64,000 nt of DNA from an uncultured Candidatus Saccharibacteria bacterium (GTDB lineage: Bacteria > Patescibacteriota > UBA1384 > DTJR01): the NCBI GenBank assembly GCA_964487045.1, contig CAZAOT010000001.1:70745-134744 (forward strand), written 5' to 3'. This document shows positions 17,061 through 32,646 of this stretch, one piece after another (the first letter of the stretch is position 1; every line of letters begins with the position of its first letter). The position numbers and the translations under genes were made by a program. The notes beneath the pieces are model-generated. The model did no database searches, was not told the origin of the DNA, and saw nothing but the letters and a program-made list of their open reading frames with translations.

Positions 17061-17127
17061 GTATCTTAACTGGTAAAAGTAAAGAGAACTTGACAGTCAG
17101 ACGCCAGCTATGATATTTTTGATTCTT

Positions 17128-17170
17128 GGCAGTGTCTCGCCTCGATTTCCCCCTTCGGGCAGACACTGCC
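17128..17170. repeat. Perfect 10-bp inverted repeat ggcagtgtct-N23-agacactgcc in the groES leader
   Basis: Read directly. Lies between a candidate TTGACA (17089) promoter and groES ATG 17308. Does not match the CIRCE consensus. Confidence 0.6.
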
Positions 17171-19336: not shown

Positions 19337-19350
19337 TAATTAAAGCAAAG

Positions 19351-19385
19351 GGCGCGGATGAGGAGGGAACGTCCTCATCCGCGCC
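19351..19385. repeat. Perfect 14-bp stem hairpin ggcgcggatgagga-gggaacg-tcctcatccgcgcc
   Basis: Read directly; part of a three-hairpin GC-rich cluster after groEL. Confidence 0.6.
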
Positions 19386-19400
19386 AGGAGAGCGAGCAGC

Positions 19401-19420
19401 CCTGCCTGCCGGCAGGCAGG
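19401..19420. repeat. Perfect 20-bp palindrome cctgcctgccggcaggcagg
   Basis: Read directly. Confidence 0.6.
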
Positions 19421-19488
19421 TCGATCAGGAAAAAGGCCCGCTCGAGTAATTCTTCGGTTATTATATTGCTAATTAACTTGTAAGTCAA

Positions 19489-19808: not shown

Positions 19809-20750
19809 TTATTTGTCATTGGGTATTTTTTCGTCATTCTTGTTTTGGGTTTCGGTTTTTTTATTATGAAACCTTGTATGGACTTCCTTTAAGTGTTCGT
19901 CTGTAACATGAGTGTAAACCTGAGTTGTAGTGACATTGACGTGCCCAAGGAGGCGCTGGACTGAACGAATATCGGCGCCGCCGCGCAAAATGTCTGTCGC
20001 AAATGAGTGGCGCAGAGTGTGGGGAGTGACTTTTTTGACTATTCCGGCTTCTTTGGCGGCGCCTTGGACGATTCTTTCGACTTGCCGAGTAGTTAGGCGC
20101 TGCGTTTCTTTCTCCTGATCTTCTTTGCGCACTGTTAACACTCTGATAAAAACCGCTTCATCTTTATCTTCACGTTTTTTCAAATATTTTTTAAGTGTTT
20201 CACAGGCTGCTTCAGAGAGAAATACAATTCTTCTCTTGCCGCCTTTGCCCAAGACCGAAAATTCCCCACGCTCTAGATTTAATTGATCTATATCCATGTT
20301 CACGAGTTCGGAAACCCTGGTGCCTGTTGAAAATAGGACTTCTAGGATTGCTCTATTCCTAAGGTCCATCAAATCTGATCCGCCGTAGACCTTTAGGATC
20401 CTCTCAACTTCTCCTTTTTCTAAAAATTCAATTTCTCGCTCCGGGGTATCAGCGAGTTCTATCTTTTCTGCTGCTAGAGATTTGATATCGTTTTTGGCTA
20501 AATATTTGAGAAAGCTCCTGATCGAAATCATGTAGTAGTTGAGGGTCTTGTTGGCGAAATTTTTGCGGTGAAGCTCTAATCTCCACTTTTTAATTATCTC
20601 CAAATCTATTTCTTCTACCGATTTAACCCCTTTCTCTTTGGCAAAATCGGCGAACTTATTCAGATATGCGTCGTAGTTTCGAATTGTAAGCTGGGAGTGA
20701 CCGCGCTCTAGTTCGATATATTCTAAAAATTCTCTTATGTATTTGTCCAT
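19809..20750 (-). CDS. Tyrosine site-specific recombinase, XerC/XerD family
   Basis: C-terminal catalytic region HTLRHSFATDILRGGADIRSVQRLLGHVNVTTTQVYTHV (R..H..R..Y). N-terminal SAM-like domain. SD GAGGAAAT before the ATG. Confidence 0.85.
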   Translation of the reverse strand: MDKYIREFLEYIELERGHSQLTIRNYDAYLNKFADFAKEKGVKSVEEIDLEIIKKWRLELHRKNFANKTLNYYMISIRSFLKYLAKNDIKSLAAEKIELADTPEREIEFLEKGEVERILKVYGGSDLMDLRNRAILEVLFSTGTRVSELVNMDIDQLNLERGEFSVLGKGGKRRIVFLSEAACETLKKYLKKREDKDEAVFIRVLTVRKEDQEKETQRLTTRQVERIVQGAAKEAGIVKKVTPHTLRHSFATDILRGGADIRSVQRLLGHVNVTTTQVYTHVTDEHLKEVHTRFHNKKTETQNKNDEKIPNDK

Positions 20751-28781: not shown

Positions 28782-28823
28782 CTAACCACTTCGTTGTTCA
28801 CACCATTCTCTGGAGGAAGCAAG

Positions 28824-29483
28824 ATGTCGAGTAGTCGATTGTATTTCCGCGAAGAACCGCCGGTTGCGGAGGGTGTCTTGCCGTCGCTTGGCGGATCGGG
28901 CCTGAATATTCCGCCGGATGAGCTGGCGAGACGCCAGCGTTGTCGCGGCAATCACAAGGAGCTACCGAACCCGCAGAAGTACGGGTATCCGGTGAGCCTC
29001 GAGCACTGCGACTGTAACCGCTGCGAGGCGGTTGGGGACTGCAGCGCTCGCCTCGATGCTTTGCGTGCGATCTGCGCTGAAGCAATGGAGTTCGATAAGG
29101 AGACGATGCTCTTCTTCGCTGGATCCGAGGTCTGCCAGTCGTGCCGGTACTTCGCCGAGTGTTCTGCTCGGTCTGAGGCGCGGCGCAGTCACTGCGTTGC
29201 TCCTGAAGAGGAAAAGCCGAAGCCCAAGCGCCGACCTACGATTGAGGAGTGGCATGAGCGACATGCGCCGGCTGGCGGACCCGAGTTCTTCGGCTGGCCC
29301 TTGATCGAGTCATCGCTGGCTTGCCAGTGCTGCCCCGACTTGAAGGGTTGCCTGAAGGAAGTCGCACGCCAGAGCATGTGCGCTGACGGCAAGCCGAAGA
29401 AGGGCGATATTGAGACTCCCTTCGACCCCAGGCACCCTGCGTGTAAGGCATGTGGACACTGCGAAGCGCTTCGCGCAACGTAG
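28824..29483 (+). CDS. Cys-rich hypothetical protein (219 aa) in a GC-rich island; paired-Cys motifs CDCNRC, CQSCRYFAEC, CQCCPDLKGC, CKACGHC (putative metal-binding)
   Basis: SD GGAGGAAG 7 nt before the ATG at 28824; the track TTG start at 28794 is probably an over-extension. GC3-rich codons. Followed by hairpin gggtggc…gccaccc at ~29507-29536. Confidence 0.5.
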   Translation: MSSSRLYFREEPPVAEGVLPSLGGSGLNIPPDELARRQRCRGNHKELPNPQKYGYPVSLEHCDCNRCEAVGDCSARLDALRAICAEAMEFDKETMLFFAGSEVCQSCRYFAECSARSEARRSHCVAPEEEKPKPKRRPTIEEWHERHAPAGGPEFFGWPLIESSLACQCCPDLKGCLKEVARQSMCADGKPKKGDIETPFDPRHPACKACGHCEALRAT

Positions 29484-29596: not shown

Positions 29597-29640
29597 GGCC
29601 TCATCATCTAGTGGTTAGGATACCATGTGATGATTTTTGA
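29597..29640 (+). other. tRNA-like 5' fragment. The first ~30 nt resemble the 5' half (acceptor + D-arm, ctagtggttagga) of the downstream tRNA-Glu; no anticodon/T-arm/3' acceptor found.
   Basis: Compared by eye with tRNA-Glu at 29748. Folds only as hairpin tcatca…tgatga. Possible tRNA remnant or att-site duplicate. Confidence 0.35.
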
Positions 29641-29747
29641 CAATATTGATAAGTCTGGCGTTCCACCCGCCAGACGCATCCTGGACACTGCGGGATTTTC
29701 GAGGTGGTACTCGAAAATTATTTTAAAAAAATTAAAAAATAGCTGAA

Positions 29748-29822
29748 GGCCCCTTCGTCTAGTGGTTAGGACGTCAGGTTCTCATCCTGGCAACGAGGGT
29801 TCGATTCCCTCAGGGGTCACCA
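29748..29822 (+). tRNA. tRNA-Glu (anticodon CTC), CCA encoded
   Basis: Cloverleaf by hand: acceptor GGCCCCT/AGGGGTC, D-loop AGTGGTTAG, anticodon stem TCAGG/CCTGG with loop TTCTCAT, T-arm GAGGGTTCGATTCCCTC, discriminator A + CCA. Followed by T6. Confidence 0.9.
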
Positions 29823-29897
29823 GCTATTTTTTAATTCAGTCAGCTTGCTCTCCGTGCGGTTTGCGAGTGGAGCGCAAACCTAAATCGCTAAAGAATT

Positions 29898-29918
29898 CAC
29901 CCTAGGGGTGTTTTTTTT
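29898..29918 (+). terminator. Small intrinsic terminator caccc-tag-ggggtg + T8
   Basis: Read directly; a second hairpin ggtttgcg-agtggag-cgcaaacc lies at 29858-29880. Confidence 0.45.
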
Positions 29919-29935
29919 GTTTATAAAATCAAAGC

Positions 29936-29985
29936 GGCCAGGTTCCGACTCTTTTACCCGTGGGTAAAAGAGTCGGAACCTGGCC
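29936..29985. repeat. Perfect 24-bp inverted repeat ggccaggttccgactcttttaccc-gt-gggtaaaagagtcggaacctggcc
   Basis: Arms verified base by base as exact reverse complements. Sits at the boundary of a ~215-bp GC-rich non-coding stretch (29986-30200). Confidence 0.8.
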
Positions 29986-30497
29986 GTGTGTGGGTCCCCA
30001 ATGGCGCCGCTCGTGCATCTCATGCTTGAAGCATCTGCGCGGGCCGCCGGCGCCGGTGTCGCGCGTCTGCTTAACGCGGTCAAAGGTGGGGTTCCGTCGG
30101 AACGACGAGCCGATCGGAGGTCCATACTTCATGCTACCATCTCCTCTTGTGCTCCGGACGAACCGGAGTTAATGGGAACGAACATCCTCGGCTTTGACTA
30201 AGCTAGTCTCAGCTCAAGAATTAGTAGGCATATATTAGCAAAAATGCTCAAAATTGTCAACCCCTATAACTAAAATATATTGTCGCTTTAGCGACCCCGC
30301 TAACAAAAGTCGATTTTGCGCTTCGAGAGGCCGATTCTAGCGAAGCGATTTTCGGAGTGTCTCAGAAAGCAAAATCGTCTTTTGGGCGTGTTAGGGTGAG
30401 GAAAGTTTTGAAAACCTAGGGAATTTGCTCGCAACAAATCCCTGGGTTTTCAAATTGTCTGTTAGCTTTAGCTAACTAATTTGATATAATTAAATTA

Positions 30498-30713
30498 ATG
30501 AAAAATAGGTTGATTTTAGGTAGTAGCTCACTTCTGACAGGACTGGCGTTATTCTTTTTTGCTCTAAAAAGCGACCCATCAGCTCAGGCTGATGTAATTG
30601 CACTTGATCCGATGGCGGCCGCGCGATTTCAAATAGTTCTCTATGGCGGTATTCTGTTAGTGCTTATTTCTTTTGTCTTTTTCGTCTTGGCTGCAACTTC
30701 GTCAAAAGACTAA
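30498..30713 (+). CDS. Small hypothetical membrane protein (71 aa, 2 TM)
   Basis: ORF with two hydrophobic segments; no family recognised. Confidence 0.35.
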   Translation: MKNRLILGSSSLLTGLALFFFALKSDPSAQADVIALDPMAAARFQIVLYGGILLVLISFVFFVLAATSSKD

Positions 30714-32174: not shown

Positions 32175-32600
32175 ATGTCTGGCAGAAGAAAGAAGCCGTT
32201 TGCGCAAACGGGAGGAGAGGTGCTGGTCAGGTTTACTCCACCTGCAAGTGGAGTTCCGAGGACGATTGGCGAGACCGTAGATGGTGACAAGATCGTGGTC
32301 TCGCCGAATGCGATTCGACAGGCCAAAAGGGTCTGTGAACCCAAGGGCATCAGGCCGCCATTCTATCTCTGGCTTTTGAGCGAGTACATGGGCGATAGCC
32401 ACAAGATCAGGCTTCGCGGTTACGCTGTCAAGGTTAAGGCCACCCGAGGCCAGATCGACGACTTTGTCGCGAAGCGAGGCGATCCTCGTCTCCCAGACTA
32501 TCTGTTCGAGAAGCGCTTTGGGCCCAAAGCCGCGATCAGGCGGCGAAAGCGCTCTCGCAAGGCGGACGAGCTTCGCCGGAAGGCGCAGCGCCTTGCGTAG
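32175..32600 (+). CDS. Small basic hypothetical protein (141 aa, Arg/Lys-rich ends; possible nucleic-acid binding) in a GC-rich island
   Basis: SD GAGGTG 6 nt before the ATG. GC3-rich codons. N-terminal RRKKP and C-terminal RRRKRSRKADELRRKAQR. Confidence 0.5.
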   Translation: MSGRRKKPFAQTGGEVLVRFTPPASGVPRTIGETVDGDKIVVSPNAIRQAKRVCEPKGIRPPFYLWLLSEYMGDSHKIRLRGYAVKVKATRGQIDDFVAKRGDPRLPDYLFEKRFGPKAAIRRRKRSRKADELRRKAQRLA

Positions 32601-32617
32601 GGCGTACTGACTTCTTC

Positions 32618-32646
32618 TTGGCCCCGGCAGTATCTGCCGGGGCCAA
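32618..32646. terminator. Perfect 13-bp GC-rich hairpin ttggccccggcag-tat-ctgccggggccaa between convergent genes
   Basis: Arms verified as reverse complements. Confidence 0.6.

Follow-up and report, generated by a model that had tools for sequence, protein, structure and literature searches.

The 675 bp that follow a tRNA-Glu gene, at positions 29823-30497 of a 64-kb window (the whole stretch of DNA that was analysed, 64,000 nucleotides (nt) long), were described in a first-pass annotation as one hairpin-dense region without a credible protein gene, a candidate structured RNA or mobile-element scar. The stretch is not a single element, rather it is a composite of four separate parts, one of which very probably holds an RNA gene missed by annotation and predicted, from its signals, to run on the minus strand from about 30225 to about 29925. 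This unit faces the separately terminated tRNA-Glu transcript head-on. The individual features first described (a hairpin at 29858-29880, a terminator at 29898-29918, a GC-rich block, its stems and the hairpins of 30200-30497) are all present. The window has a GC content of 41.8% and encodes GroEL, YchF, a XerC/D-type recombinase, FtsX and an H+-pyrophosphatase, together with many large proteins without a Pfam family match. In YchF it shares 75-78% identity with a Candidatus Berkelbacteria metagenome-assembled genome (MAG) and with one further MAG, and several homologues of its C39-like peptidase carry the name Berkelbacteria, which places the organism in the CPR/Patescibacteria close to Berkelbacteria. 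The four parts are:

29823-29918, plus strand: trailer and canonical terminator of tRNA-Glu.
30260 to about 29925, minus strand: independent transcription unit.
30282-30476, strand not assigned: lineage-variable hairpin module.
30485-30490, plus strand: promoter of the next gene.

Read in the direction of its predicted transcription, the minus-strand unit comprises the following features, some of them shared with the related loci L085 and L089:

30232-30260, minus strand: sigma-70 promoter TTGACA-17-(TGC)TAATAT with an extended -10 element (promoter scan, 10/12 matches, TG present).
30184-30221, minus strand: hairpin P1 of the 5' untranslated region (5'-UTR), its 5' strand AUUCUUGAGCU identical in the window, L085 and L089.
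30152-30168, minus strand: 5'-UTR hairpin P2, CUCCGG-UUCGU-CCGGAG, found in the window, L085 and L089 with differing sequences.
30140-30145, minus strand: Shine-Dalgarno (SD) sequence AGGAGA, 7 nt ahead of an AUG (read from the sequence).
29929-30132, minus strand: short open reading frame (ORF) of 67 codons with its AUG at 30132, here the mini-ORF (ORF list; the first ~33 codons, 30034-30132, align with relatives).
29987-30030, minus strand: rest of the conserved 3' module ahead of the hairpin, including GGCGCCAUUG (plus-strand caatggcgcc, 29999-30008).
29925-29986, minus strand: terminator, a 25-bp perfect hairpin (29935-29986) with the U-rich tail GCUUUGAUUUUAU (terminator and repeat scans).

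The promoter, which may also be written TTGACA-17-TGCTAATAT, is near-consensus and points towards tRNA-Glu, with the predicted start of the RNA near 30225. These signals, their positions and their conservation can be read directly from the DNA, and transcription and termination of the unit are predicted from them together with four homologues. Beyond its first ~33 codons (30034-30132) the mini-ORF is unaligned with its relatives, whose ORFs comprise 29-35 codons; in the window its peptide includes MKYGPPIGSSFRRNPTF.

The 3' boundary is the most conspicuous feature of the locus. Positions 29935-29959 pair with 29962-29986 across a 2-nt loop, so that the exact inverted repeat first reported as 24 bp is indeed perfect and is 25 bp long, the longest perfect hairpin in the window. 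Its arm occurs at only these two places in the 64 kb (0 expected, 100 shuffles), and the search for further copies thus came back empty. On the minus strand the terminator scan finds at least 20 pairs, 10 of them GC, followed by the tail CGCTTTGATT, i.e., the stem and U-tract of an intrinsic terminator; the call is made on this strand only, the plus strand being without a U-tract after the hairpin. What had been listed as a separate curiosity reads as the terminator of a minus-strand unit with its own conserved promoter. Three Logan assemblies (SRR11845623-25) contain the same strain as the window (contigs L001-L004). Two of their contigs end at 29922-29923, ~13 nt ahead of the hairpin, one ends at 29996, ~10 nt past it, and a fourth begins at 30399, just ahead of the second hairpin of the spacer module (30407). 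The 25-bp hairpin is real and fragments de Bruijn assemblies, because one of these contigs (L003) carries its exact sequence and contig ends cluster there.

Syntenic loci were found by a YchF-based genome scan and through C39-peptidase homologues with contig look-ups, yielding, in Berkelbacteria-like lineages, three full copies of the unit (the window, L085, which is identical to L090, and L089) and one partial copy (L008). In L085/L090 the unit lies between tRNA-Glu and the gene of a 71-aa membrane protein, the same place as in the window. It adjoins tRNA-Glu in L089, where the orientation of the tRNA differs from that in the window, and in L008, where only its 3' end is present before the contig stops. 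L007 and L093 have an ABC-transporter gene directly after tRNA-Glu and no unit. The C39 peptidases share 62-65% identity among the window, L085 and L089, and 52-53% for L008, and intergenic DNA is not normally alignable at 62-65% identity of the neighbouring protein. The 5' 224 nt of the unit are nevertheless 71% identical between the window and L089. For L085 against the window, identity reaches 75-77% in two segments, the promoter with P1 and the 3' hairpin module (75% over 68 nt including the hairpin); the motif GGCGCCAUUG of this 3' module is also present in L008. All three full copies keep TTGACA-N17-TGCTA(A/G)TAT as well as a purine-rich SD and the AUG. The base of the terminal hairpin, GGCCAGG...CCUGGCC, and the U-rich tail are common to the window, L085 and L008; the hairpin is imperfect in L085, its interior in L008 differs in sequence and stays paired, and at the corresponding place L089 carries another hairpin, likewise followed by a U-rich tail. 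Conservation in homologous regions, the test which the first-pass annotation had set for its own proposal, is hence found: the ends of the unit are kept in related genomes, and both 5' hairpins and the terminal hairpin survive sequence change. Because the ends are kept across genus-level divergence while the GC content lies ~20 points above that of the genome, the comparison indicates that the unit is under selection for something.

The window harbors the minimal version of the unit, in which the 5' module abuts the 3' module directly. Middle inserts of ~470 nt in L085 and ~560 nt in L089 bring these units to totals of 790-860 nt; the inserts are of ~60% GC, mutually unalignable, without a long ORF and hairpin-rich. 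They fold better than shuffles, at z = -3.3 to -4.6 with the terminal hairpin left out and z = -6.8 and -5.6 for the whole units. A covariance model of the 5' module, run over 200 kb of related loci, matched its three training sequences only. Near its tRNA-Glu, L006 carries a GC-rich mini-gene of similar layout and different sequence.

The core of the unit is proposed to be a small RNA of mRNA type whose micro-ORF is translated and evolves fast, a reading to which we give a probability of about one half; translation, like any function of the unit, is predicted from the signals and the homologues. The near-consensus extended -10 promoter would fire towards tRNA-Glu, and the RNA would start with two hairpins, the first of which (P1), ~8 nt from the 5' end, could act as a 5' stabiliser. 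Such stabilising hairpins usually sit near the 5' end. The SD and AUG would then open a short frame rich in GC at the third codon position (GC3), followed by the GC-rich body, and the 25-bp hairpin with its U-rich tail would both terminate transcription intrinsically and block 3' exonucleases. The product would be a micro-protein of 29-35 aa in the relatives and 67 aa in the window. By analogy with dual-function RNAs, a second role at the RNA level is possible.

Support for translation comes from the composition and layout of the frame. Across the three genomes, GC3 in the mini-ORF frame is 0.78-0.86 versus 0.5-0.7 at the first and second codon positions (GC1/GC2), with a pooled chi-square p = 5e-4, giving a codon-position periodicity of small margins that the antisense frame shares in part. 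Under a codon model trained on neighbouring GC-rich genes, whose GC3 is 0.63-0.78 (0.37-0.38 in the two core genes checked, those of the C39 peptidase and the 71-aa protein), the mini-ORF frame is the best of six. The mini-ORFs of L085 and L089 end at the same aligned TAG stop after 29 and 35 codons, respectively; the window reaches 67 aa, versus 29-35 aa in its relatives, because this ancestral stop is missing, and a codon alignment made by hand contains whole-codon gaps only. The earlier view of the GC-rich block as mere overlapping ORFs does not account for a short ORF with a conserved SD and AUG and a GC3 bias, and the statement that the region holds no credible protein gene has to be qualified by the same 67-codon minus-strand ORF (29929-30132) with its good SD.

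Several observations weigh against translation, or against the unit as drawn here. There is no synonymous excess (synonymous to non-synonymous codon changes of 4:20, 0:24 and 1:19), hence no sign of purifying selection on the peptide, and the amino-acid identity of ~39% is about that expected by chance from 70% nucleotide identity. The antisense frame has a comparable period-3 signal, and translation of the mini-ORF in the window would pass through the 25-bp hairpin. Word-based and full HMMER searches with the 67-aa ORF (5.8 billion and 1.84 billion proteins) returned no homologue, and the gene caller, silent across the 1.3-kb region of L085, chose another frame in L089. With three full homologues and one partial the comparison is underpowered, and RNAalifold gives a covariation term of ~0 or unfavourable. 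A sole protein match, P0123, was rejected as spurious, being a translated satellite repeat. Exact look-ups of the 67-aa, 71-aa and 66-aa ORFs found none on record, and Pfam, NCBIfam, PHROGs and PADLOC gave no match for any candidate ORF of the window or its relatives.

The main rival retains the same minus-strand unit and considers it a purely non-coding structured RNA, in which the SD, AUG and ORF form an untranslated RNA motif; it is a possible but clearly less probable reading. Conservation at the nucleotide level and the lack of a synonymous excess fit it, as do P1 and P2, conserved with apparently compensatory changes. In P2, four pairs are changed on both sides and still paired across the three sequences (window, L085, L089), while the 3' strand of P1 varies by one-sided G-U/A-U exchanges and its apical part differs in length and sequence. 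The bodies of L085 and L089 are ORF-less and, at the z-scores given above without the terminal hairpin, folded, that of L085 has no period-3 signal, and in the window and L085 the AUG is followed by CCUCC, which resembles an anti-SD. The body, however, cannot carry a conserved tertiary fold because it is unalignable between L085 and L089 and absent from the window. What body the window does have is unstructured, no Rfam family matches, and GC3 and the codon signal favour the mini-ORF frame.

The folding statistics bear directly on this rival. A GC-corrected structure scan covering every 120-nt window in the 64 kb puts the 25-bp hairpin first, as the most stable local structure (z = -6.9), with a hairpin at 30391 fifth and the region at 30271 eleventh; the hairpin density first pointed out is accordingly above chance. 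The GC-rich block, 29905-30204, is of 57-60% GC against 41.8% for the window and contains the stems ctccgg/ccggag (30152-30168) and gttccg/cggaac. Its core (29971-30061) has z = +0.5 to +2.4 in the same scan, with no structure beyond composition. Without the big hairpin, the minus-strand RNA (29990-30228, 239 nt) folds at -81.7 kcal/mol versus -77.3 +/- 4.4 for dinucleotide shuffles (z = -1.0), and the strong z-scores of the whole stretch (-6.5, -6.9) exist because of the single 25-bp hairpin. Beyond its terminator, then, the window's unit does not fold as a structured non-coding RNA (ncRNA) generally would, and the non-homologous bodies of its relatives do (z = -3.3 to -4.6). Rfam 15, searched at gathering and permissive thresholds in the window and relatives, passes only tRNA. 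Relaxing the search to E <= 10 (window) and E <= 1 (relatives) adds no family, the best sub-threshold match being Scr3202 (32.8 bits versus a threshold of 52), which is driven by the hairpin. The argument that a GC-rich island in such a genome signals a structured RNA consequently fails for the core, and it fails again next door, where a 60% GC island (28824-29483) is a protein gene. The structured-RNA proposal stands to the extent that an RNA gene with conserved ends and hairpins is very probable; that gene is predicted on the minus strand and its body is unstructured.

A broader and rather doubtful proposal is that the unit represents the founding example of a clade-specific class of GC-rich RNA in Berkelbacteria-like members of the candidate phyla radiation (CPR), with a conserved 5' module (promoter, P1, P2 and mini-ORF) and a conserved 3' hairpin module around a variable, hairpin-dense cargo of 0-560 nt. 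If true, this would mean a new large non-coding RNA, or an RNA locus accepting variable inserts.

According to a further and unlikely alternative, the unit is a non-functional remnant, i.e., the scar or pseudogene of GC-rich DNA acquired horizontally at a tRNA-Glu recombination hotspot. The surroundings of tRNA-Glu are plastic: besides the truncated tRNA-Glu piece at 29598 there are three in L008 and one in L089, where the tRNA is also oriented differently. In the slot between the C39 gene and tRNA-Glu, GC-rich islands are present in the window, L008, L085, L089 and L093 but differ in content, the unit body ranges from 0 to ~560 nt, and GC3 is 0.7-0.85 versus 0.37-0.38 in the core genes checked. 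A hotspot history of the tRNA-Glu locus is plausible because tRNA-Glu pieces are duplicated or truncated and the slot content differs by lineage. Neutral DNA, however, would not keep the -35, extended -10, P1, SD, AUG and terminator at 62-65% protein identity, and neutral drift would lead towards 42% GC; judged by its retained signals, the minus-strand unit is too well conserved for a scar. Nor is a mobile element in evidence. No integrase or transposase adjoins the unit, the XerC/D-like gene at 19809-20750, 9 kb away, holds a conserved syntenic position in the relatives, and no terminal repeats or target duplications were seen. No second copy of the block or the arms occurs within the 64-kb window, and blastn of the region against phages and plasmids gave no match. 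Neither the junction pattern nor the promoter/P1 pattern had a match in viral contigs, and metagenome scans with junction-plus-hairpin and pseudo-tRNA patterns gave 0 matches in a collection that is incomplete for this clade, since it missed the JGI contig L089, which carries the pseudo-tRNA pattern. These searches lend no support to the suggestion of a mobile-element scar.

It is very improbable that a plus-strand ORF at 29986-30201 (71 aa) is the real gene and the minus-strand signals coincidental. The antisense frame does have more third-position changes (14 vs 8 and 8), more synonymous codon changes (8:16, window vs L089), a G-rich first codon position and a comparable positional score. 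Against this, the ORF has no promoter and no SD, would start inside or directly after the hairpin, differs in start and stop position in every genome and is conserved only where it overlaps the mini-ORF; its codon score is below that of the minus frame in all three genomes, neither Pfam nor NCBIfam has a match for it, and no record lists it as a called gene. Least probable of all is a bacteriocin or ribosomally synthesised, post-translationally modified peptide (RiPP) precursor with a double-glycine leader cut after GAGG and a cationic Trp-/His-rich peptide processed by the C39-like peptidase, since, for all that a Peptidase_C39_2 gene lies 1.2 kb upstream and the window peptide reads ...TGAGG|PRRCFKHEMHERRHWGP..., the ORFs of L085 and L089 stop where the core would begin and so leave no core peptide, an LSxxELxxIxGG-type leader is missing, no ABC exporter is fused or adjacent, and the C39_2 (YvpB-like) gene is conserved in synteny and present without the unit in L007 and L093.

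The remaining parts of the 675 bp, with the tRNA-Glu gene, comprise:

29748-29822, plus strand: tRNA-Glu(CUC) (ARAGORN; Rfam tRNA, 60.8 bits).
29812-29836, plus strand: 3' end and trailer of tRNA-Glu, pairing with the leader at 29730-29754 (inverted repeat of 25 nt, 88% complementary).
29858-29880, plus strand: small trailer hairpin GGTTTGCG-AGTGGAG-CGCAAACC (read from the sequence).
29898-29918, plus strand: canonical intrinsic terminator of the tRNA-Glu transcript, CACCCTAGGGGTG then T8 (terminator scan).
30282-30476, strand not assigned: GTCGC-TTTA-GCGAC, a long imperfect hairpin, a second hairpin and GTTAGC-TTTA-GCTAAC (inverted-repeat scan).
30485-30490, plus strand: TATAAT box, 7 nt ahead of the ATG of the 71-aa gene (read from the sequence).

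The pairing of leader and trailer lengthens the acceptor stem of tRNA-Glu by ~16 bp and is kept in L008 via a compensatory C>T / G>A change (TAGCTGAA/CCAGCTA to TAGTTGAA/CCAACTA), which suggests a pre-tRNA processing helix. The small trailer hairpin (29858-29880) is not conserved in L008, while equivalent terminators lie downstream of tRNA-Glu in L085, L008 and L007. Upstream, at 29598-29722 (plus strand), is a disrupted tRNA-Glu-like piece, called by neither ARAGORN nor Rfam, with three hairpins downstream of its 5' half. This 5' half, GGCCTCATCATCTAGTGGTTAGGATACC, is closer to the functional tRNA-Glu of L085 than to the window's own. The piece is conserved in L008, with four compensatory pairs in the hairpin GTCTGGCG-TTCCACC-CGCCAGAC (in L008, GTCGCAAG...CTTGCGAC), and may represent either a duplicate that has decayed or a tRNA-derived RNA with a function. 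Two more tandem pieces resembling the tRNA-Glu 5' half lie upstream of its homologue in L008 (4012-4160 of that contig), making three truncated pieces there in all; one of the two has a 40-nt insertion in the D-loop region. In L089, one such 5'-half-like piece adjoins the tRNA-Glu.

The hairpin module at 30282-30476 folds equally well on both strands (z = -5.9 plus, -5.8 minus). Its long imperfect hairpin spans 30304-30384 (arms 30304-30328/30360-30384) and the second hairpin 30407-30454 (arms 30407-30425/30436-30454). L085 lacks the module and has 21 nt between the two promoters instead; in L089 the first ~60 nt of the module (GTCGC-loop-GCGAC, CAAAAGNCGATTTT) are conserved up to the contig end. 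A second small RNA or an insertion could explain it. GCTAAC...GTTAGC at ~30298-30466 was considered as an attC-like site and rejected, the motifs being just 6 nt and no integron integrase being present. Also rejected was the segment 30286-30475 as the 5' leader of the 71-aa gene, given that the TATAAT lies 7 nt before the ATG and that the segment is absent from L085. The gene itself (30498-30713) encodes a 71-aa two-helix membrane protein, and L085 has the identical TATAAT-ATG arrangement, TATAATTAAATTAATG; the position of the TATAAT suggests a leaderless mRNA.

The window has further GC-rich elements, and in a self-comparison its GC islands were mutually unrelated. The 60% GC island at 28824-29483 (plus strand) is a real gene with the promoter TTGACT-17-TAAAAT, the SD GGAGG and GC3 0.70. 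Its 219-aa product has four CxxCx5C repeats and no Pfam, NCBIfam, PHROG or PADLOC match. In this slot L093 encodes a 106-aa relative that has LPSLGG in common with it and contains a motif similar to the repeats, CxxxCx5C; other lineages have unrelated small GC-rich ORFs there. A 12-nt perfect inverted repeat flanking this island (28794-29483) was dismissed, being at about chance (~0.5 expected in 4.2 kb) and the island being a protein gene. A third island, of 57% GC, at 32175-32646 (plus strand), has a 141-aa basic ORF of GC3 0.67 without a family match, followed by a 13-bp perfect GC-rich hairpin with a poor U-tract (32618-32646). This genome may contain several GC-rich mini-units that end in long perfect hairpin terminators, of which the unit would be one and 19342-19488 (minus strand) a second candidate. 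This second element, of similar style, converges on groEL and takes second place among the 120-nt windows of the structure scan. It has the promoter TTGACT-17-TATAAT (11/12), a ~70-nt body with a perfect 20-nt palindrome (19401-19420), a 14-bp perfect hairpin (19351-19385) with the tail CUUUGCUUUA, and no plausible ORF. At 17090-17170 (plus strand), ~440 nt upstream of groEL (17606), a promoter-like TTGACA-16-GATATT precedes a long imperfect hairpin (~17128-17170); the site is third in the structure scan and, by eye, is not CIRCE.

Taken together, the most fitting label for the locus is that of a small ORF-bearing RNA gene whose terminator hairpin is unusually long, located among ordinary tRNA and promoter signals. 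The unit was missed by gene callers and by Rfam alike, and as it stands it represents an annotation gap rather than a surprise, and a useful warning against taking every GC-rich intergenic island for a structured RNA. CPR/Patescibacteria have small genomes and, to our knowledge, almost nothing is known of their small RNAs or micro-proteins. If expressed, the unit would be among the first conserved small-RNA or micro-protein loci described for this group, and a concrete case for why GC-rich islands persist in AT-rich CPR genomes.

Among known systems, the ORF-bearing dual-function small RNAs, such as RNAIII/delta-haemolysin, SR1/SR1P and SgrS/SgrT, invite comparison. From general knowledge of these RNAs, the unit is predicted to be like them in being stand-alone, promoter-driven, terminator-ended and a few hundred nt long, with stable hairpins and, near the 5' end, an ORF of about 26-45 codons. 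It differs from them in that its body is hypervariable between lineages and that it has no sequence or Rfam relationship to them. ROOL and GOLLD are large ornate ncRNAs, often found near tRNA genes. The unit shares with them its place beside a tRNA gene and, in the relatives, a length of 790-860 nt with many hairpins; in contrast, it matches none of their Rfam models, and its long body is unconserved between lineages and missing in the window.

GC-rich intergenic region (GC-IGR) and DIMPL searches for ncRNA candidates use long GC-rich intergenic regions of AT-rich genomes as their criterion (PMC6429828, PMC8723152, PMC11109978). The locus is like such candidates in being a long GC-rich intergenic region of an AT-rich genome, which was also the reasoning of the first-pass annotation; it differs from candidates as outlined there in that its core is not extra-structured, shows coding-like periodicity and neighbours a GC island that is a protein gene. 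Finally, the 3' end resembles convergent, back-to-back Rho-independent terminators, with a GC-rich stem-loop and a U-rich tract beside the terminator of the converging tRNA gene. Unlike usual intrinsic terminators, it has a perfect 25-bp stem that is far longer, closed by a loop of 2-4 nt, and a U-tract that is interrupted (GCUUUGAUUUU), and across lineages the bases of this stem, GGCCAGG/CCUGGCC, are kept while its interior changes.

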